In this document: positions 1 through 9,624 of the stretch, piece by piece | How positions within the stretch are numbered: position 1 is the stretch's first letter | How the letters are laid out: each line of letters starts with the position of its first letter | Origin: an uncultured delta proteobacterium | GTDB lineage: Bacteria > Desulfobacterota > Binatia > UBA9968 | Assembly (NCBI GenBank): GCA_963727625.1 | Contig: CAVSHR010000004.1 | Coordinates: 576,001-640,000, forward strand | Direction: 5' to 3' | DNA: 64,000 bases | Translations under genes and position numbers: made by a program | Notes under the pieces: model-generated | Databases searched by the model: none | Seen by the model: the letters and a program-made list of their open reading frames with translations, nothing else | Told to the model about the DNA's origin: nothing

Positions 1-1
1 T

Positions 2-367
2 CTGCGCGAAATGGGCGAAGGCGTGCCGCGCATATTCCAGGAAATGGAGACCTACGGCCTCCATCCGCCGGAGTTGTCGGCGGACGGCTTTATCTTTTCT
101 GTGACGCTGCACAATGCGCCGGTTTACGATGAAGCGACGCTGCGCTGGCTGAACCAGTTCAGCACGGCTCAGATCAATTTGCGCCAGCGCCGGCTGCTCG
201 CCTATGCCTATTGCCACGGCAAGACTTTTTCCACAGCGGAGTACGAGCGGATCGCCGAAGTCGACCGCGACACCGCCTACCGCGACATCCGCCTGATGAT
301 TAAAAACGGCATTCTTGCGCCACTAAAACCAAAGAGCCGAAGCTACCGCATCGTCGAGAAACTTTAA
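2..367 (+). CDS. C-terminal part of an ATP-binding/transcriptional-regulator-type protein (HATPase_c_4/RecG-C-like region plus C-terminal wHTH, often with an AlbA/Schlafen N-terminus); 5'-truncated by the window edge
   Basis: Frame open from position 2 (LRE-MGEGVPRIFQEM...PPE...FSVTL); HTH-like end YERIAEVDRDTAYRDIRLM. Confidence 0.65.
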   Translation: MREMGEGVPRIFQEMETYGLHPPELSADGFIFSVTLHNAPVYDEATLRWLNQFSTAQINLRQRRLLAYAYCHGKTFSTAEYERIAEVDRDTAYRDIRLMIKNGILAPLKPKSRSYRIVEKL

Positions 368-716
368 CACGCCACCGGTTAAGCCGCTCAAGATTCACGT
401 TCGGGTCGTGCCGGAGCCTCGGCGCGAGCAATGGAGGCTCGACGAGCTGCTTGCGTGGTTTGAGAATCGCCGAGTTGGCATTGACCTCTGCCCACTCCGG
501 ATCGATCGAGAACTAAATCCTTGATCTCCTTTCCTCATCCATACTAAAACCTCGGCTCAGTGCTTTTGCTCACTCTGGCAAAGGTAAAAAGTTTCCCAAA
601 ATTATTTCTCGTCGACCACACACTCGATACGCAAGGTTGACAACGGCGCCCGTTCATTTTAGTTCACTCTGAGAAACAGCTGTTACCAATTCCATTGCTT
701 TATCTCGGGAGGGGTC

Positions 717-1307
717 ATGACAAAATCACAGCGCCATCCGGTGTTTGAACAATTCATTCAAGAGCTGCGCGCGGCCTGGACCGAGCTGCCCGACATGGAA
801 GCGCGCATGAAGAGAGGCCGGCACCTGCTTGAAGAATTAGTCAAAAACGAGTCGTTGCGCCAAGCATCGAGAAACTGGCCCTCCACCGAAGGGCGCAAAA
901 ATCTGCTGTTCTACGAAGACCCCGACTTCGGTTTCGCGATCAACGGTGTGGTGCGGGTTCCGGGCCGCAAGGGCAGCATTCACGACCACGCCCATGCCTG
1001 GACCGCATACGGCCTACTCGACGGCAGCGAAAGCTTGCAACGTTTTCGCCGCGTCGACGACTGTAGCAAAGAAGGTTACGTCAAGTTGGAATTGGCAAGC
1101 GTCACGCCGGGAATGCCGGGAAATGTCGATTTGGTTCCGCCCTTCGACATTCACGCCGAACAAGGCGGCCCAACCCGCTCCGTCGCCATTATCCTGCGAT
1201 CCGAGCGCGTCGCTGGCAAAGTGTTACAGGGCAGTTATAACCTGGAGAGCAATAGCGTCCGTCATATCGAAGGACCGGCGAACATTCCCTACGAGATCAC
1301 AGCTTGA
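717..1307 (+). CDS. Cysteine dioxygenase-like cupin protein
   Basis: IHDHAHAW cupin motif 1, DIHAE motif 2, LFYEDPDFGF; SD GGAGG upstream. Confidence 0.7.
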   Translation: MTKSQRHPVFEQFIQELRAAWTELPDMEARMKRGRHLLEELVKNESLRQASRNWPSTEGRKNLLFYEDPDFGFAINGVVRVPGRKGSIHDHAHAWTAYGLLDGSESLQRFRRVDDCSKEGYVKLELASVTPGMPGNVDLVPPFDIHAEQGGPTRSVAIILRSERVAGKVLQGSYNLESNSVRHIEGPANIPYEITA

Positions 1308-1431
1308 CTCGAAATCTACGACAAATAGCTTGCCGCGCGGATTGGACGCGAAAACTTAAGTTCCCATTTAGCCCGGCCTTCGCGCTCGTCGTGGAAACAC
1401 ACTCTGGATCTAGCAAACGGATTCGCAAGGT

Positions 1432-2646
1432 TTAGATTTTTCCCAGAGCGCCCGCCAGGTCTGCGATGAGATCGTCAGCATCTTCGATACCGACGGAGTA
1501 GCGGATCAGATTGTCTTTGATGCCGACGATGAGCCGCTCTTCGGTGCTGAGCTCGTAGAAGCTCATCAGGGCCGGCTGCTCGATCAAACTCTCCACGCCG
1601 CCCAGTGACGGCGCAATCTGCGGGATCTTGCAGGCGTCAACAACTCGCGATGTCGCTTCCAAGTCGCCGTCAATCTCGAAGGAAACCACGCCGCCGAAGC
1701 CGCGCATCTGGCGCCGCGCCACTTCATGCTGCGGATGGCTTGGCAAGCCGGCATAATGCACCGCGCTGACGCGCGGGTGCGCTGACAAAAATTCCGCTAA
1801 CCCCTGAGCATTGGCGTTCTGTCGCGCGACCCGCAACGCAAAGGTTTTCAAGCCGCGCACCAACAGGTAGGCGGCCAGCGGATCGATGATCGCGCCGGTC
1901 ACGTGCTGCAATGAGCGGATGCCGTCGACCAATTCGGCGGAGCCGAGAACCGCTCCGGCCAACAGATCGTTGTGCCCACCCAAGTATTTCGTTGCCGAAT
2001 GCAGCACGATATCGATGCCGAACTCGAGCGGCCGTTGGTTGTACGGCGTCGCGAAGGTGGCGTCGATGAGAGTCTTGACGCGGTGGCGCTGGCCGATCTC
2101 GGCGAAGCGCTCCATGTCGACGATCCGGTTGTAAGGATTGGTCGGCGACTCGCTCACGAGCAGGCGTGTCGTCGGCCGAATCGCTTCTTCCACAGCTTGG
2201 TAGTCGCTCGCCGGTACCACCGAAACCTCGATGCCATATCGGTGCAAAGTCTGGGTGAGAAACTGGCGCGTGCGCCGGTAGGAGTCGTCGGTCACGACCA
2301 CATGCGCGTTGTGCGACAGCACGGCGTAGAGCGTCGTGGTCACCGCCGCCATGCCGCTGGAAAAAAGCAAACAATCCGCCGCGCCCTCTAGCGCCGCGAG
2401 CTTCTGCTCGGCGATGCGTTGGGTCGGGTTGCCGTAGCGACCATATTCCTCGCGTTCGATGCGATGTTGAAAATGATCGTGCAGCTCCTGCGTATCGGCG
2501 AAAGTGTAGGTGGCCGTCTGCACAATCGGCGTGGCCAGCGAATTGCCAAGCTTGGGGCGCGGCTCGCCGCCATGTACTGCCAGTGTGCTGAACCCGGGCG
2601 TCCGGCCGAGACTGCCCGCGCCCTTTTTGCTTTCCGGCGCGCTCAT
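1432..2646 (-). CDS. metB: Cystathionine gamma-synthase (Cys/Met metabolism PLP enzyme), plant-type
   Basis: YGRYGNPT, SSGMAA, ESPTNP, DATFATP, HSATKYLGGHND (PLP lysine), APSLGGVES. Confidence 0.85.
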   Translation of the reverse strand: MSAPESKKGAGSLGRTPGFSTLAVHGGEPRPKLGNSLATPIVQTATYTFADTQELHDHFQHRIEREEYGRYGNPTQRIAEQKLAALEGAADCLLFSSGMAAVTTTLYAVLSHNAHVVVTDDSYRRTRQFLTQTLHRYGIEVSVVPASDYQAVEEAIRPTTRLLVSESPTNPYNRIVDMERFAEIGQRHRVKTLIDATFATPYNQRPLEFGIDIVLHSATKYLGGHNDLLAGAVLGSAELVDGIRSLQHVTGAIIDPLAAYLLVRGLKTFALRVARQNANAQGLAEFLSAHPRVSAVHYAGLPSHPQHEVARRQMRGFGGVVSFEIDGDLEATSRVVDACKIPQIAPSLGGVESLIEQPALMSFYELSTEERLIVGIKDNLIRYSVGIEDADDLIADLAGALGKI

Positions 2647-3992
2647 TAGCCGTCCAGCAAACGCATGCGCTCGACGTAGCGCGAGATCGCGTCGCTGATT
2701 TCTTTAGGATCGGCCTTGAGCTCCAGCGGACGGTTTTGCTGGGTTCCCTGGATGCCCGGCAGAGTGCCAGCGTGATAGGCGATTTTTTGCTCGGCGAACT
2801 TTAGGCCATGCGCCGTCGAGATCACCACGACCCGCTCGTGGCCGCGGATGACCTTGCGCTCCACCAGCTTGCGCAGCGCCGCCAGCGCCACGCCCGTGTG
2901 CGGGCAGTTGAACATACCGGTGCGGTCGGCGCGCGCGACTTCTTCGGCAAGCTCCAGCTCGGAGGCCTGCTCGACGACACCGTCAAAGCGCTGCAACGTC
3001 GCGATCGCTTTGCGCACGCTCACCGGATTGCCGATCTGAATTGCACTCGCCAGCGTCTTGCGCGCGGTCATCGACTCGAAATGCTCGAAGTTTGTTAAAT
3101 AGGAAAGATACAGGGGGTTGGCGTTTTCGGCCTGGGCCACGCAGATGCGCGGCAGCTTGGAGATCAAACCGAGCTCGTGCATCATCAAAAATCCTTTGCC
3201 GAAGGCGCTGACGTTGCCGAGATTGCCGCCCGGCAGGATCACCCAATCCGGCACCTCCCAGTCGAACTGCTGAACGATCTCGACAGAGATCGTCTTCTGC
3301 CCTTCGATGCGCAGGCTGTTCATCGAGTTGGCCAGATAAATATGCTTGTGCTTGGTGACTTCCTGCACCGCCGCCATGCAGCCGTCGAAATCGGTGTCCA
3401 GCGACAGTACCAGCGCGCCGTTGGCCAACGGCTGCACCAATTGCGCAGGCGAGACTTTGTCGCGCGGTAAAAATACTACCGTCGGGATTCCCGCCGCCGC
3501 GCCGTAGGCCGCCAGCGCCGCCGAAGTGTCGCCGGTGGAAGCACAGGCCACCGCGTCGATGGGCTCGCCGTTGGCGATCATTTGATTGACCACGGAAACC
3601 AGCACCGTCATCCCGAGGTCCTTGAAAGAACCGGTATGCGAGTTACCGCATTGCTTGACCCAGAGATCCTCGAGATGGAGTTGCTTGCCGTAACGATTGG
3701 CCCAGAAGAGATTGGTGTTCCCCTCGCAGGTCGAGACGATGTTCGTATCGTCGATAAACGGCACCACCCACTCTTTTTTCGCCCACACGCCGGAGCCGTA
3801 CGGATAGACGTTCTGCCCGACGCGGTCATCGAACAGCTTGATCCAGCCAGCCGCCGCCCGGGTGGCAAGCGCTTCCATGTCGTGGCGCACTTCGAGCAAG
3901 TCGCCGCAGGTCGGACAGCGGTAAATAATTTCCAGCAGGCTGAATTGCCCCGGACAGCCGTTAATACATTGAAACCAAGCGTTATAGCTCAT
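2646..3992 (-). CDS. thrC: Threonine synthase (plant-like subfamily, N-terminal Cys-pair ribbon)
   Basis: [13 protein letters not shown] motif, [40 protein letters not shown]; stop overlaps metB start (TAATG). Confidence 0.92.
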
Positions 3993-4165
3993 GGGAAATT
4001 TTTCTCTACGTCCTCCTCCGATTAGACACCGCGATCCTTTTCACGTCTCGCGGAAAACAGCAAGGCTATTTAGCATACACGACCATATTGCCCGCTTCAG
4101 CGGATTTTTCCAGCGCGCGCAATGACCGGACGTCCATCGCGCCGCTCGCCGCTAAATCTAGCACT

Positions 4166-4405
4166 TCACGGATTCGCATCGATCCAACTTTTCGCCAAGT
4201 TGATGACGAACTTCTCCGCGTCGCCGCTGGTCTTGAAGCGATCGGGCAGGACACCGATCGAATGGCTTTGGCGCTGCCCGTCGCGCCGCCAAGTGATCTC
4301 CGCCCCCGCGGTCCATTGCTTGTCGCTCTGGTTGAGCGAGGTAAACGCGAGAATCAGCCGGTTGTTGTAATAAAGGTTAGCCATCTTGGCCCGGATTATA
4401 GACAT
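4166..4405 (-). CDS. Small hypothetical protein (start may be the Met at 4384)
   Basis: Globular beta-then-helix composition (W-A-A-I-W ... F-T--DAE-F----AK-WID); family not certain. Confidence 0.5.
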   Translation of the reverse strand: MSIIRAKMANLYYNNRLILAFTSLNQSDKQWTAGAEITWRRDGQRQSHSIGVLPDRFKTSGDAEKFVINLAKSWIDANP

Positions 4406-4762
4406 GTCGGGCCGTCATTGCCAAGAATCCCGCTGCCAGGGTCTTCGTAACACCGCGGGCTCCATTCACTTCACTGATCGTGGTCGAGGCATCGAAGGGC
4501 GAGATGGAAGTCGGCGAAGCACGATCACCTTTCACAATCACGGCTCTTGCCACCCACATCCCCAGCCCGGTGCGCCAACTGTTGTCGCACCACCGGGCAA
4601 GCCTACCCTTTCGACATGTCATCAACCTTCCCTCCTCCTTCCCACGATTGCTGTCGCTTCGTCTGTTTCCCTATGGCTTGCCCTTTGCGTTTTCTTTCGG
4701 CCAGCAGATGGTCTCGGAAAAAACAGCGGCGAGCCGGAAGAAAACCTCAGGGAGCAACTTCA

Positions 4763-5116
4763 ATGAACATAAACTGGGATCTGGTCGAGCCGACAGACAG
4801 CGGTATCTTGGAAGAGCTATCGAGAAGGAGCCTGCGCGACGGTGAAAGAAGGCTCATGCTCGCCCTGCTCGAAGGCGCCGTGGAAGACTTCCAAAAATAC
4901 CTCCTGGCCAACGGCAAACGCAGCCAAGAATTATTCCTGGAGGCCGAACGCTGGATCTTGGAAACCGGCAGCCCGTCATTCTTTTCCTTTGAAAATGTCT
5001 GCGAGCATCTCCAGTTCGACCCCGCCTATGTCCGCCAAGGCGTGATGCGCTGGAAGGCCACCAAACTCGTTGAACAGCTCCCGAGTTGCGCTAATCCCTC
5101 CCTGCGTCGTGCGTAA
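4763..5116 (+). CDS. Conserved hypothetical protein
   Basis: SD GGAG then ATG at 4763; ERRLMLALLEGAVEDFQKY...EAERWI...FSFENVCEHL..DP.YVR pattern. Confidence 0.6.
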   Translation: MNINWDLVEPTDSGILEELSRRSLRDGERRLMLALLEGAVEDFQKYLLANGKRSQELFLEAERWILETGSPSFFSFENVCEHLQFDPAYVRQGVMRWKATKLVEQLPSCANPSLRRA

Positions 5117-5240
5117 CGGAATATTATCTGAACTCCTATATTCTGCCCAATAGTCGCGATTTTATACTTCCGCCGGCTTTCGGACGTTGACCCGACGCAC
5201 CGGTGTCCTGTAAATTGATCGTAGGAAGGAGCAACCAACC

Positions 5241-6011
5241 ATGAGCGCAGAACTCGAAGACGTAAAGCGCGAAGTCGCCGCCGCCAACCGCGTGCTCTCT
5301 AACCTGGGCCTCGCCACCGGCCTTACCGCCGCCCTCGGGCACGCCAGCATGCGCGTCCCGTCCGAACCCAATCATTTCCTCGTCAAGGGCCGCGAGTACG
5401 AGCTCGACGCTCTAGCGATCATGGAGCCCGACGACATGGTCATGTGTGATACTGAAGGGTTCCTCATCGGCGGGCGGCCGGGACTGACGCAGTGCTCCGA
5501 AGTCAAGATCCACGCCTGTATCTACAAGACGCATCCGAAGGTCCAGGCGATCGTCCACGTCCACCCGCGCTACACGATACTGATGAGCGTGCTCACCGGC
5601 TCGCTTAAACCGATGCGCCAGGAGGGCGCCCAGGTGCTGCGCAAGCCGCTGCCAGTCTATCCCCATGTAAAAACCATCCAAAGCGACGCCGAAGGTATGG
5701 AAGTCGCAACGTTGTTAGGCGACAGCGAAGCGATCCTGCTGCGCGGTCACGGCGCGGTCACCACAGGAGCCAAGATTTCAGAAGCGGTCATGGGCATGGC
5801 CCATCTCGAAGAGCAAGCGCAGATGAACTACCTTGCTTACGTTGCTCAGGGTAAGGACTATCCTTATTTAGAGGACAAAGTTTTGGATGAAATGATCAAC
5901 CGCACCCCGCTCTACGAGCAGCCGCACTTCAAGGACGTGCTTAAAGGCCGCGAACCCCAACGTGGCGGGACGTGGAATTATCAAAAGAAATCAGCAACAA
6001 GCGCCAAGTAA
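5241..6011 (+). CDS. Class II aldolase/adducin family protein
   Basis: GHAS, SEVKIH, HVHP and LRGHG metal-binding motifs; SD AAGGAG. Confidence 0.85.
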   Translation: MSAELEDVKREVAAANRVLSNLGLATGLTAALGHASMRVPSEPNHFLVKGREYELDALAIMEPDDMVMCDTEGFLIGGRPGLTQCSEVKIHACIYKTHPKVQAIVHVHPRYTILMSVLTGSLKPMRQEGAQVLRKPLPVYPHVKTIQSDAEGMEVATLLGDSEAILLRGHGAVTTGAKISEAVMGMAHLEEQAQMNYLAYVAQGKDYPYLEDKVLDEMINRTPLYEQPHFKDVLKGREPQRGGTWNYQKKSATSAK

Positions 6012-6591
6012 AACATTTTATGTTCGATTATTGGAACAAAATTTCAAAGGCTGCTTAGGCGGCGTCCCATCGGCTTGATTGCGACGAACCCTCTTGATCA
6101 AACGCCGGAAACTCTTCCCATTCAATCTGAATTAAACTCAGGGGAAACATGGTAAGCCAAGACAACCTGAATTCCTAAAACGCGGCGGACTGCTCCCGAT
6201 CCCACTATCCAAGTTTACACGCCAAGAACGTGTAGCTATAGACCTGGAATACCCTTGCGTTTTTCTCACCGTTCCATCGACTCGGTTTGGCCATCTCTTC
6301 CTCCTGGCTGATTCCCCCAGCCTATCTATGGCCATTTCACTCTCACTCATCAAGTGTTCCGAATCTGGTGGGACACGACAGGGAATCTATCCCAAGGAAA
6401 TGCACCAGTTAAATGGCGTCTATACTCAGGCATTCAGCCGACGTCATCGCCGCGTTGGACATCTACACCGGTCAGTGATGGAGTCAAATTGAAGTTGAAT
6501 AGTTTTAGCATCCTCGTACATCGTCCGCCGCAGTCGGCAAAATCGAAGTCTTCTGCATCGATTAAGCGGCTCAAAGACCCGCCGGGTGCAT

Positions 6592-6627
6592 AAAAAAAAG
6601 GGGGCACCCCGACCAGGCGCCCCCTTT
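6592..6627 (-). terminator. Rho-independent terminator of the RRM gene
   Basis: Minus-strand GC-rich stem AAAGGGGGCGCC...GGTGCCCCC followed by a T run. Confidence 0.85.
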
Positions 6628-6652
6628 CTCAATTACTGACGTATCGAGAAAT

Positions 6653-6976
6653 CTACCAGCGGTTACGTCCGCCGTCGCGATTGCCGCCACGGCCTCCGCC
6701 GCCGCCGCCACCGAAGTTATCGCGCTTGGCCATCGGCTTGGCTTCATTCACCGTCAGGCTACGGCCTTCGAATTGCGTGCCGTTGAGCGACGAGATCGCG
6801 GCTTGCGCCTCGCTGTTCGATGACATTTCGACAAAGCCGAAACCGCGCGATTGTCCGGTAAACTTGTCCGAGATCACATTGGCCGATTCCACCGTGCCGT
6901 GTGCCGCGAAAAGTTCCCGAAGACTCCCCTCAGTGACTGAATAAGGCAAACCACCCACATATAATTTACTACCCAT
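6653..6976 (-). CDS. RNA recognition motif (RRM/RNP-1) RNA-binding protein with Gly-rich tail
   Basis: RNP2 LYVGGL, RNP1 RGFGFVEM, VNEAKP; SD AGGAGG. Confidence 0.95.
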   Translation of the reverse strand: MGSKLYVGGLPYSVTEGSLRELFAAHGTVESANVISDKFTGQSRGFGFVEMSSNSEAQAAISSLNGTQFEGRSLTVNEAKPMAKRDNFGGGGGGGRGGNRDGGRNRW

Positions 6977-7177
6977 GTTGTCCTCCTATGAGACAGTGTT
7001 GTTGTCTATAATCCTGAGAATCTAACTGCTAAAGGGGCAGAACATGGGCTCGTGAAATGCTAAGACCGCGCTCTGGTCGGATTGTCATTTAGAAATTGCT
7101 ATCAAAGGATAGAGACGGAAAGAAGCCTTCAAATTTTTCTGTCCTCTCAGAAGGCCGTATACTGAAGAAGATAAGTC

Positions 7178-7206
7178 ACGGTACGTGTAATTCCGGGTGA
7201 AGTCAA
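7178..7206 (-). promoter_or_regulatory. Putative sigma70 promoter of the RRM gene
   Basis: TTGACT-17 bp-TACCGT on the minus strand, about 195 nt upstream of the ATG. Confidence 0.5.
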
Positions 7207-7304
7207 CCCCGCATCGGTAAATCGCAAAAATAATTTTCTCGCCGATACTTTACCTCGCGCAGGCAACGCCCCCCTTTCGCATCCCGATCAAATCGAATTG
7301 CGGC

Positions 7305-7333
7305 TTGACACCCGGTGCCACCTGTTGGAGAAT
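7305..7333 (+). promoter_or_regulatory. Putative sigma70 promoter of the aldolase gene
   Basis: TTGACA-17 bp-GAGAAT. Confidence 0.55.
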
Positions 7334-7362
7334 CCGGCAAAATCCACACAAGGAGAATTCAT

Positions 7363-8337
7363 ATGGTCACTTCCAACGATTTGAAGGGCATCATGGCGAT
7401 GATGCCAGCGTTTACGACCAAGGACGGCGACCGGATCGATGCGACGGATACGGTCGATACCGATGAGCTGGCGCGCGCGGTGGATCAGTTGATCCGCGAC
7501 GGCGGAGCCAACGTCATCACCACGACCGGCAGTTTCGGGGAATTTCATACGCTGCTTTGGGACGAGCATAAGAAGCTGATCGAGGCGACGGTGGCGGCGG
7601 TGAAGAAGCGCGTGCCGGTGTTTGTCGGCTGCACGAATTTGAATCCGCGCGAGGCGATAAGGCAGGCGAAGTTCGCCCAGGAAGCGGGCGCCGACGGTTT
7701 ACTGTTGGGAGTCCCCTTCTATTATCAGGCGACCGTGGACAACGCGGTGCAGTTCTATCACGACGTGGCCGATGCGCTGCCGAAGATGGGCGTGATGATC
7801 TATCATAACCCGACGCACCATCGTGTGACCATTCCCGTCGGAGCGTTCAAAAAGATCACCGAGAAGCCCAACATCGTCGGCATGAAGGATTCGCACCGCA
7901 CGCCGCTGCAGTTCGTCGAGCTGTGCAATATCACGAAAGGCAAAATAAGCATCTTCGTCAACCAGACCCAGATGTTTCCTTATTATCAGCTCGGCGCGGC
8001 GGGCTGCTGGTCGTTCAACGTCTGGATGGGGCCGTCACCGGTGGTGGCTTTGCGTGGAGCCTGCTTGGCGCAAGATTGGAAAACCGCGACACAGATCTGT
8101 CTCGACCTCGAAGGCACCGGCAAGGTCGGCCCGAATATCGGCAACCTATCTTGGCGTGAAAACGTCTTCAAACTTTCCGTCAACGAAGCCGGCTATTGCA
8201 CCGCCGGTCCGCTGCGCGCGCCGTGGAGAATCATCCCCCAGGAAGTCAAAGACAACGGCAAGAAAATCGCGGCGTACTGGAAGGGGCTCTGCGAAAAGTA
8301 TCCGCTGGCCCGGGAGGCTGAGAGAAAGACAGCTTAG
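7363..8337 (+). CDS. DHDPS-family hydratase-aldolase (NahE/PhdJ-like)
   Basis: TVDTDELARAVDQLI, GSFGEFHTL, IYHNP, Schiff-base GMKD; SD AGGAG and ATG at 7363. Confidence 0.8.
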   Translation: MVTSNDLKGIMAMMPAFTTKDGDRIDATDTVDTDELARAVDQLIRDGGANVITTTGSFGEFHTLLWDEHKKLIEATVAAVKKRVPVFVGCTNLNPREAIRQAKFAQEAGADGLLLGVPFYYQATVDNAVQFYHDVADALPKMGVMIYHNPTHHRVTIPVGAFKKITEKPNIVGMKDSHRTPLQFVELCNITKGKISIFVNQTQMFPYYQLGAAGCWSFNVWMGPSPVVALRGACLAQDWKTATQICLDLEGTGKVGPNIGNLSWRENVFKLSVNEAGYCTAGPLRAPWRIIPQEVKDNGKKIAAYWKGLCEKYPLAREAERKTA

Positions 8338-8384
8338 GCGATTTTTCTCGTTCAAGGTTCAAACGTTCAAGGGTTCACGGTCGG

Positions 8385-8427
8385 AAACGAAGCCTCTTTT
8401 CGCTGCTGAGGGGCTTCGTTTTTTTTT
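8385..8427 (+). terminator. Rho-independent terminator
   Basis: AAACGAAGCCTCT...AGGGGCTTCGTTT stem followed by poly-T. Confidence 0.8.
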
Positions 8428-8529
8428 GCATCGCAGCGAGCGCAAATCGACTTGGCGTGTGCTGGACCTTCACCCCAATTTAAGTGTAAAAGACATCATT
8501 GCAGCCAAACCCAATCCAGGGGAGAAATT

Positions 8530-9624
8530 ATGAGCACGACGGCAAATCATAAAATCATCGACGGCGACGGCCATGTGGTCGAGGACATCGCGAGCATCGT
8601 CAAGTACATGCCCGAGGAATATGTCGGCAGGAGCTTTTCGGAGGCGCGGGGAAAAAATCCCTTTCCGCCCATCGACCATTTGCATACCGCCAACCGCCAC
8701 TACACGCCGAAGGGGGCGTTCGCCAACGTCGGGCGCGAAGGCTGGGAGCTGTTTCTCGAAGACGTCGGCATCGGCACCACGGTGCTCTACACCAGCGCGG
8801 GGCTCGCCTTCGGCAAGATCGTCAGCCGCGACTGGGCCATCGAGCTGGCGCGCGCCTACAATAATTGGATCCACGACACTTACCTCTCGAAAAGCCCGCG
8901 CTTCAAGGCGATGGGGTTGATTCCGCTGCAGGAACCGGCCGAAGCGGTGATCGAGCTGCGCCGCATCGTGCGCGATCTCGGTTTCTCCGGCGCCATGCTG
9001 CCGTCCATGGGCGTCAACATGCCGCATCTGGGCTCGCAGAAATATTGGCCGATCTACGGCGAAGCCGAACGCTTGGGCTGCGCCATCGCGATCCACGGCG
9101 GTGCGCACGAAAATCTCTTGATGGACGATATGAGCCCCTACGCAGTGGCCAATGCACTGGGTCATCCAATAAGCCAGATGATCGGTTTTGCCGGGATTAT
9201 CTTCAACGGCGTCTTCGACAAATTCCCCGGCCTGCGCCTGGGCTTCATGGAAGCGGGCTGCGCCTGGCTGCTCACCTGCATGGAGCGCTTCACCGGCTCG
9301 TGGAAAAGCCACGTGCAGCACGATCCGCGCGGCCGCTTCTTGCAGCTGGAAAAAGGCGAAAAGGTCATCGATTATATTCTGCGCCACATCGACGAAGGGC
9401 GCATTTTCGTCGGCTGCGAGGGCGAGGAGCTGAGCATCGCCGAGGCCGTGCGCATCACCGGCAATAAACCCTATGTCTTTTCTACCGACTACCCGCACGA
9501 GGTCGATGCGCAGACGTGCAAGCATGAATTGGAAGAATTACGCGAGAACCCGCATCTGACCGCGGCAGACAAGGACGCCATCCTGTTCGGCAACTCGCAA
9601 AGGTTTTATCAGTTGGCTCAGTGA
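8530..9624 (+). CDS. Amidohydrolase_2 family protein
   Basis: IIDGDGH, ARAYNNW, AIHGG, FMEAG, STDYPH; ATG at 8530 after GGAG. Confidence 0.9.
   Translation: MSTTANHKIIDGDGHVVEDIASIVKYMPEEYVGRSFSEARGKNPFPPIDHLHTANRHYTPKGAFANVGREGWELFLEDVGIGTTVLYTSAGLAFGKIVSRDWAIELARAYNNWIHDTYLSKSPRFKAMGLIPLQEPAEAVIELRRIVRDLGFSGAMLPSMGVNMPHLGSQKYWPIYGEAERLGCAIAIHGGAHENLLMDDMSPYAVANALGHPISQMIGFAGIIFNGVFDKFPGLRLGFMEAGCAWLLTCMERFTGSWKSHVQHDPRGRFLQLEKGEKVIDYILRHIDEGRIFVGCEGEELSIAEAVRITGNKPYVFSTDYPHEVDAQTCKHELEELRENPHLTAADKDAILFGNSQRFYQLAQ

Follow-up and report, generated by a model that had tools for sequence, protein, structure and literature searches.

A 64,000-nucleotide stretch of DNA from an uncultured bacterium of the Binatia (positions 576,001 to 640,000 of contig CAVSHR010000004.1, assembly GCA_963727625.1; hereafter the window) carries two overlapping genes, one for a plant-type threonine synthase (TS) and one for an enzyme of the plant-type cystathionine gamma-synthase (CGS) clade. 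The two probably make up a bicistronic operon with translational coupling, in which the threonine and methionine pathways would part at O-phosphohomoserine (OPH), with TS leading to threonine and the CGS-type enzyme leading to homocysteine. According to textbooks, OPH is the threonine/methionine branch point of plants only, and bacteria commit homoserine to methionine through acylation by MetA or MetX. This bacterium, by contrast, probably makes methionine from a phosphorylated intermediate as plants do, and perhaps with one step fewer. We regard the OPH branch point as the best reading because both proteins are of plant type, MetA and MetX are missing from the genome, and the pair is conserved and often fused in relatives. 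The source is the genome of a soil bacterium (6.62 Mb in 15 contigs), with a completeness of 98.45% and a contamination of 6.3%.

A plant-type threonine synthase gene overlaps a gene of the plant-type CGS clade

The minus strand encodes both proteins, TS (448 amino acids) at 3992..2646 and the CGS-type protein (404 amino acids), a Cys/Met-metabolism pyridoxal phosphate (PLP) enzyme, at 2646..1432. The junction reads GGACGGCTAATGAGCG on that strand: the TS stop codon TAA (2648-2646) and the CGS start codon ATG (2646-2644) have one base in common. An earlier note on this DNA, made from the sequence alone, had reported a TAATG overlap within a pair at 1432..3992; direct reading of the sequence bears out both, the overlap lying at 2644..2648. 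Beyond the CGS end lies a convergent open reading frame (ORF) of 196 amino acids (717..1307, plus strand), for which no Pfam match was found at E 0.001 or better, and upstream of TS on the same strand there is just one small ORF of 79 amino acids, so that the TS-CGS unit would be bicistronic. No ThiS or ThiF gene was found around the pair within positions 1-9000.

The TS passed the curated equivalog cut-off of TIGR00260 (217.4 bits, cut-off 167.1) and matched PF00291 (PALP) at 191.8 bits. Searched against all solved structures, it matched TS1 of Arabidopsis thaliana (1e5x, also 2c2b and 2c2g) best, at 571.5 bits and over nearly its whole length, N-terminal domain included (query residues 10-440, chain residues 46-479). 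The next-best chain, the bacterial TS 2zsj, reached 178.1 bits, with the five non-Arabidopsis chains spanning 55.6-178.1 bits; unlike the window TS and Arabidopsis TS, the solved bacterial TS chains (about 350-430 amino acids) do not match the N-terminal domain. By these scores, which go far past what chance would give, rather than by a tree, the protein is assigned to the plant-type subfamily (class I, with a long N-terminus), as the earlier note had proposed. It shares 28-32% identity with the three other ThrC paralogs of the same genome.

Two features of the TS sequence stand out. First, Lys124 in the SFKD motif (3621..3623, minus strand; codon checked), the presumed PLP-binding Schiff-base lysine of the family, is invariant in all 23 bacterial plant-type TS sequences of our alignment A3 and aligns with the same motif in Arabidopsis TS. 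Second, four cysteines near the N-terminus (C9, C13, C26 and C29; 3906..3968, minus strand; codons checked) form a zinc-ribbon-like motif that is likewise invariant in 23/23 sequences. The Arabidopsis residues opposite C13, C26 and C29 in the HMMER alignment are not cysteines, and C9 comes before residue 10, the first residue aligned. Because plant TS aligns through this stretch without cysteines opposite those three positions, its N-terminal domain looks like a cysteine-less version of the bacterial zinc-ribbon-like domain. Arabidopsis TS1, a plant TS activated allosterically by S-adenosylmethionine (SAM) bound at the dimer interface, resembles the window TS in its near whole-length match, its SFKD lysine motif and its branch-point position beside a CGS-type enzyme, whereas the window TS differs in lacking a transit peptide, in carrying the four invariant cysteines and in having three further ThrC paralogs in the genome. 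Any control of the window TS by SAM would be a matter of analogy with the plant enzyme.

The CGS-type protein contains the blocks EYGRYGNPT, YRRTRQF, KIPQIAPSLGGVESLIEQPALMS and EERLIVGIKDNLIRYS; all blocks quoted in the earlier note for either protein were found in the translations. It matched PF01053 over its full length (447.3 bits) and fell short of the curated cut-off in each of the 25 NCBIfam families listed, out of 45 matched. The best of these models was PRK08249 (388.5 bits, cut-off 600), and TIGR01328, which describes methionine gamma-lyase (MGL), gave 375.2 bits (cut-off 549.7), TIGR01325 346.1 bits (510.05) and TIGR02080 312.6 bits (504.55). Among solved structures, tobacco CGS (1i41/1qgn) came first at 402.9 bits, followed by an MGL chain at 342.3 bits. 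When 1.84 billion cluster representatives were searched, three eukaryote clusters ranked among the top 20, namely a green-algal cluster (P0126; 425.5 bits, 51% identity) with one member named Micromonas 'plant cystathionine gamma-synthase', land-plant CGS (P0134; 383.8 bits) and cryptophyte CGS with a CBS domain (P0139).

Phylogenetic trees were built after leaving out 21 of 150 representatives that were shorter than 370 or longer than 640 amino acids. In the FastTree phylogeny of 149 rows, a 62-row clade (SH-like support 100) united the window CGS, every TS-linked CGS and a 13-row eukaryote clade, while 87 rows fell outside this plant-type CGS clade. A quick IQ-TREE tree of 82 rows gave the same split, with a 67-row clade at SH-aLRT 100 and the eukaryotes as a 14-row clade (99). 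The plant-type clade stood apart from MGL, actinobacterial CGS and PRK08249 proteins in these trees, and the window enzyme was accordingly separated from ordinary bacterial CGS and from MGL. In line with this split, none of 42 clade representatives had an NCBIfam match at E 1e-135 or better, compared with 19 of 77 outside the clade, where ten rows were left unscanned on size grounds; these 19 matched MGL, PRK07811-type CGS or PRK08249 models, and three passed their cut-offs. Together with the score against tobacco CGS, the common clade with plant and algal CGS in both trees upholds the plant-type assignment of this enzyme made in the earlier note. The note had also suggested a bearing on the origin of the plant pathway: as judged from these trees, plants sit inside the same large CGS clade, but the backbone within it was without resolution in IQ-TREE and plants were not placed as sister to the window bacterium's group, so the trees tell nothing of the donor of the plant genes.

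The catalytic residues of the family are all in place. Lys220 (1987..1989, minus strand; codon checked) corresponds in the alignment to 1i41 to the PLP-binding Lys261 of tobacco CGS, Arg382 (1501..1503, minus strand; codon checked) to the substrate-carboxylate arginine Arg423, and Y123 to Y163, and the three residues are invariant in our alignment A2. The roles of tobacco Y163, Lys261 and Arg423 are described in PMC8428831. Y123 is the catalytic tyrosine that opens the basic motif Y123-R124-R125-T126-R127 (2266..2280, minus strand), and this Y-R-x-T-R motif of the plant-type clade replaces the Y-G-G-T of other PF01053 members. Indeed, position 124 is R in 49/62 clade rows and Gly in 78/87 outside rows; position 125 is R, Q or K in 27, 15 and 8 clade rows, respectively, and Gly in 66/87 outside rows; and R127 occurs in 49/62 clade rows while not being among the five commonest residues in the 87 outside rows. 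The basic motif may bind phosphate, a lysine of it having reportedly been proposed to bind the phosphate of OPH in tobacco CGS.

The window CGS therefore shares with plant CGS (tobacco 1qgn/1i41; P0134 and P0126) a well-supported common clade, the best match among solved structures, the catalytic Lys, Tyr and Arg, the Y-R-x-T-R motif and, by our reading, OPH as substrate. Unlike land-plant CGS, which has a regulatory N-terminal extension of ~150 residues, it has about 20 residues before the domain and aligns from its residue 21 to residue 155 of the 544-amino-acid P0134. It also differs from plant CGS in that its gene overlaps the TS gene (the two being fused in relatives) and in that a partner cystathionine beta-lyase is not detectable in the genome. 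With bacterial MetB, MetZ, MetY and MGL it has PF01053, the fold and the cofactor in common, but it belongs to another clade and stays below the listed cut-offs; the MetB/MetZ/MetY group, moreover, uses acyl-homoserines from MetA or MetX, neither of which the source genome encodes.

The source genome can make OPH but has no recognisable route through acyl-homoserines

We now turn to the methionine and threonine genes of the whole genome. HTS/MetA had no match, MetX reached 21.9 bits at best, and HcyBio/DUF39 had no match either. Canonical ThrB was not found (best 42.7 bits), whereas HomK, a homoserine phosphotransferase, was present at 542.9 bits (cut-off 446.3), and a ThrB-alt-like gene ~12 kb from the window scored 211.7 bits, below its cut-off of 255.9. 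MetH is full length (1662.9 bits), and no full-length MetE gene was found in the genome. The window CGS is the only real PF01053 member (next match 37.8 bits) and no PatB-type C-S lyase exceeded the cut-off of 340 (best 129.6 bits); a cystathionine beta-lyase was thus not detectable by PF01053 and PatB-type searches in this 98%-complete genome. From its gene content, the organism appears to need homocysteine and to be able to make OPH, without known enzymes for acyl-homoserines or a recognisable beta-lyase. The methionine synthesis independent of MetA and MetX that the earlier note had raised is well matched by a genome with HomK and MetH and neither acyltransferase.

We propose that OPH would be supplied by HomK, perhaps also by the ThrB-alt-like kinase, and that TS would convert it to threonine, while the CGS-type enzyme, a putative gamma-replacement PLP enzyme, would displace the phosphate of OPH with a sulfur nucleophile to give homocysteine for MetH. 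Acyl-homoserine would not be made, since MetA and MetX are both absent. Translational coupling in this bacterium, and fusion in its relatives, would tie TS and the CGS-type enzyme together.

The pair is conserved in several phyla and is often fused

A scan of one genome per species found at least 590 TS relatives, of which 80 loci were kept. According to their record titles, these come from Binatia, 'Deltaproteobacteria', Methylomirabilota/Rokubacteria, Chloroflexota, Nitrospirota, Verrucomicrobiota, Myxococcota, Thermodesulfobacteriota, Spirochaetota, Acidobacteriota and further groups. Among the matches listed, the nearest TS relatives are 91-93% identical. A CGS homolog lay directly downstream of the plant-type TS and on the same strand in 39/80 loci, from metagenome-assembled genomes (MAGs) labelled Binatia, Methylomirabilota/Rokubacteria, Nitrospirota, Verrucomicrobiota and others; for six of the 41 loci without a downstream CGS, the flank on that side is shorter than 1,700 bases. 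Short overlaps are usual among relatives. When the naive first start was taken in the 36 pair loci with more than 330 amino acids aligned, the two genes overlapped by -1 in six, by -4 in four and by -8 in seven, and two were single fused ORFs (L079, 847 amino acids; L101, 850 amino acids), with the junction of the remaining loci ambiguous owing to long open upstream frames.

Fusions were also seen among long relatives of the CGS. Of 166 such proteins at E 1e-40 or better, 120 were listed, and 63 of these are TS-CGS fusions of 797-880 amino acids, some of them named Nitrospira 'threonine synthase' by their sources. Against the window pair, these fusions show 63-67% identity in the TS part and 46-58% in the CGS part. 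The single operon that the earlier note had postulated is hence seen as an overlapping pair here and as a conserved, often fused pair in relatives. We do not claim independent origins of the TS-CGS linkage, because, in the approximately unbiased (AU) test, a tree constrained to group all 23 TS-linked CGS rows in a single clade was not rejected (p-AU 0.706) and was better by 10.36 log-likelihood units.

Genomes with the pair differ from genomes with TS alone in their methionine genes

Next, we compared gene content between 25 of the 39 genomes with the pair (G001-G025) and 25 of the 41 genomes with TS alone (G026-G050), a set picked by us. Strong MetX matches (415 bits or more) occurred in 0/25 pair genomes and 10/25 TS-alone genomes (Fisher p 0.00064), and HTS in 1/25 and 2/25, respectively, which for strong MetX or HTS taken together gives 1/25 versus 12/25 (Fisher p 0.00076); these p values are indicative only, as the compared genomes are related. 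HcyBio was found in none of the pair genomes and in one genome overall (1/50; G049, TS alone). In 10/25 pair genomes the linked CGS was the sole PF01053-like match, with no PatB match among these ten, and in five (G003, G004, G015, G022 and G024) the plant-type TS was the sole ThrC match. MetH was present at E 1e-100 or better in 16/25 pair genomes. In G004, a single ThrC and a single PF01053 enzyme accompany MetH, while MetX, HTS, HcyBio and PatB are all missing.

Direct sulfhydrylation, transsulfuration and other readings

The earlier note had described the branch point as plant-style. The OPH branch point stands as the best reading, while the beta-lyase that the plant pathway would call for is not detectable here. 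Given this missing lyase, we favor direct sulfhydrylation over a route through cysteine and cystathionine: direct conversion of OPH to homocysteine, in which sulfide or a protein thiocarboxylate would supply the sulfur, appears at least as likely as cystathionine formation. This is in line with the phosphohomoserine sulfhydrylase activity reported in plants (PMC5120207). Carried further, the CGS-like enzyme could be a physiological OPH sulfhydrylase, making up with TS a cystathionine-free, two-enzyme threonine/methionine branch point in many bacteria, among them Binatia, Rokubacteria, Nitrospirota, Verrucomicrobiota and others, often as an 848-amino-acid TS-CGS polypeptide; the TS half might keep SAM activation, with the fusion regulating its own partitioning of OPH, and the module would be the kind of ancestor from which both plant enzymes came. 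We put this extended proposal forward tentatively, as possible though on balance doubtful.

A number of observations weigh against the OPH branch point and are gathered here. We infer the use of OPH from the absence of other activated homoserines and from homology. Most of the compared genomes are MAGs whose completeness is unstated. Six pair genomes have weaker MetX-like matches (90-250 bits), and the one pair genome with an HTS match is G021. An unlinked CGS-like gene, 53-61% identical, is present in 8/25 TS-alone genomes, and in three of these eight (G035, G045 and G046) such a plant-type gene (53-58% identical) occurs alongside true MetX and MetY, so the acyl-homoserine and plant-type CGS routes are not strictly exclusive. 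In the source genome itself there are four ThrC-family genes, and the three besides the window TS also exceed the TIGR00260 cut-off. One of these genes lies between MoeB/ThiF-like and ThiS-family genes, followed by a CysM-like gene, in a cluster (L014; G000:C4:729570-733544) that could provide a second route from OPH to homocysteine. Finally, 5/25 pair genomes, all of Rokubacteria type, have a PatB-type lyase over the cut-off, and genomes of this type also hold second PF01053 paralogs; since both are present, transsulfuration fits these genomes, where the enzyme responsible would share 72-80% identity with the window CGS.

The HTS (MetA) match of G021 (G021:C5:63177-64070) sits in an open frame listed as 2820 amino acids, which is unusual for a MetA gene.

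Full plant-style transsulfuration is accordingly the first alternative to be considered. In this case, the enzyme would be an OPH-dependent CGS using cysteine, and the beta-lyase would belong to an unrecognised family or the same enzyme would be bifunctional. Plant CGS are the closest characterised relatives, the lyases and paralogs of the Rokubacteria-type genomes point the same way, as do tandem PF01053-PF01053 proteins of ~760 amino acids among the relatives, and for Xanthomonadales it has been proposed that one bifunctional enzyme serves as both MetB and MetC (GapMind 2026). Set against this are the nearly complete source genome, which has neither a second PF01053 gene nor a PatB-type lyase, and the ten pair genomes whose CGS is the sole PF01053-like match and which have no PatB match. 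We consider transsulfuration in the window bacterium rather unlikely.

A second alternative assigns homocysteine synthesis to the L014 cluster and leaves the CGS-like enzyme otherwise employed, for example in gamma-elimination of OPH to 2-oxobutanoate for isoleucine, or as a cystathionine or methionine gamma-lyase. The cluster lies at about 730-733 kb of contig C4, where MoeB scored 313 bits, the ThrC-like protein (420 amino acids) 287.5 bits to TIGR00260, the ThiS-family protein (96 amino acids, C-terminus AGGTHR) 65.7 bits to PF02597 and the CysM-like protein 372.8 bits. By its gene make-up, we read it as a system for sulfur amino acids that depends on a thiocarboxylate, like CysO/CysM or MetM/MetO. 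A TS annotation is often given to MetM, a ThrC homolog (GapMind 2026), and the window CGS does score 375 bits to the MGL model TIGR01328, although below its cut-off. Nevertheless, linkage and fusion with TS across phyla point to a shared substrate, and the window enzyme groups with CGS and away from the MGL representatives. No MetM candidate exists in the five genomes whose only ThrC match is the plant-type TS; of these, G003, G004 and G015 have MetH (none was matched in G022 and G024, where MetE was not searched). The likeness of the cluster to MetM/MetO, furthermore, is one of gene make-up. Taken together, we judge this alternative improbable.

The remaining alternative, an ordinary bacterial MetB or MetZ fed with acyl-homoserine by an unrecognised acyltransferase and placed beside thrC as part of a shared amino-acid regulon, could draw on sources that call close relatives simply 'cystathionine gamma-synthase' and on the weak MetX-like matches of six pair genomes, but it is highly improbable in view of scores below every listed curated cut-off for MetB, MetZ, MetY and MGL models, the contrast of 0/42 and 19/77 NCBIfam matches inside and outside the clade, a genome without MetA or MetX, and the frequent fusion with TS.

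Relation to known OPH-dependent routes

Methionine synthesis from OPH has precedents in prokaryotes. For sulfate reducers, a route through DUF39 has been put forward (PMC4045070), and in Streptomyces one through MetM/MetO has been shown (GapMind 2026, PMC12172450). The Streptomyces route (Hasebe et al. 2024, via GapMind 2026, PMC12172450) resembles the one proposed here in being OPH-based and bacterial and in working without MetA or MetX. There, however, the OPH consumer is a ThrC homolog acting with a thiocarboxylated carrier protein, whereas the window candidate is a fold-type I PF01053 enzyme; moreover, the ThrC homolog beside the window CGS is, unlike in the MetM/MetO case, 65% like true plant TS, and a MetM/MetO-like cluster may exist separately as L014.

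A further parallel, drawn from its description, is TK1449 of the archaeon Thermococcus kodakarensis (Makino et al. 2016, PMC5120207). Like the window CGS, it is a prokaryotic PF01053 enzyme; it is required for methionine synthesis and was proposed to turn OPH into homocysteine, either via cystathionine or as a phosphohomoserine sulfhydrylase (PMC5120207). It differs in being archaeal and in having no TS linkage or fusion reported in the available part of that paper, and for both enzymes the substrate has been deduced indirectly. In our full-text literature search, in which few subscription journals were covered, we found neither bacterial TS-CGS operons or fusions described, nor any OPH-dependent CGS from bacteria.

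If the OPH branch point is true, it would fill a gap in the methionine pathway of many uncultured soil and water lineages, nitrite-oxidising Nitrospirota included, and would correct the automatic reading of such genes as ordinary metB. The bacterial proteins could also serve as simple soluble models for plant TS and CGS, enzymes of interest as targets for herbicides and crop nutrition. A non-cyanobacterial origin has been reported for both plant enzymes (Reyes-Prieto and Moustafa 2012, PMC3518814), and the pair would give this origin a concrete prokaryotic context. Should the CGS-like enzyme be a direct OPH sulfhydrylase, its route would be one not established as physiological in bacteria.

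Leader region and further observations

We also inspected the region ahead of TS. Rfam gave no riboswitch or leader RNA match in window positions 1-8000 (E up to 1) or in 3950-4450 (E up to 10), and across 20 related loci it found tRNA alone; the 198-nucleotide TS leader did not fold above shuffled sequences (z = -1.42). On the strength of these Rfam results and the leader z score, a riboswitch or leader RNA ahead of TS was rejected. The small upstream ORF (4166-4405, minus strand) is listed at 79 amino acids without an assigned family, and its probable start is an ATG giving MANLYYNN... The two closest loci (L025 and L026) retain it, with changes that look synonymous, whereas L027-L030 do not. 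A promoter-like site precedes it at 4424..4395 (near-consensus TTGGCA-18-TATAAT, 11/12 matches); we considered this site as the operon promoter and rejected it, as it belongs to the small conserved ORF and its link to the operon is not clear. A 179-base metatranscriptome contig from Logan is identical to positions 4010-4188, which comprise the TS leader and the end of the small ORF. None of the Logan contigs from RNA libraries covers or bridges the TS and CGS genes, which says nothing on transcription either way.

Several further observations concern relatives of the two enzymes. In an Entotheonella-labelled genome, the plant-type TS match (L052, 3001-4326) contains one in-frame stop codon in the sequence as fetched. 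Around unlinked plant-type CGS genes, no homoserine kinase was found in the seven loci examined (of eight fetched, L114 being too short), and small ThiS-like ORFs with a terminal GG were likewise not found beside them. In two of these seven loci, both from Chloroflexota (L111, 2753-5368; L112, 2676-5130), the unlinked CGS-like gene adjoins a ThiF-family E1-like gene, a weak hint at a thiocarboxylate sulfur donor; both loci also have a DUF4015 glycosyl hydrolase neighbor. The tandem PF01053-PF01053 proteins (P0123, P0124 and P0292-P0305; ~757-795 amino acids), which are labelled Alphaproteobacteria/Rhodospirillales 'aminotransferase class V-fold', may be fused pairs of a gamma-synthase and a beta-lyase. 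Other fusion partners of PF01053 enzymes were a glutamate-cysteine ligase family 2 domain, a MetX-type hydrolase domain and homoserine dehydrogenase (P0259, 864 amino acids; P0380, P0396, P0406; P0395).

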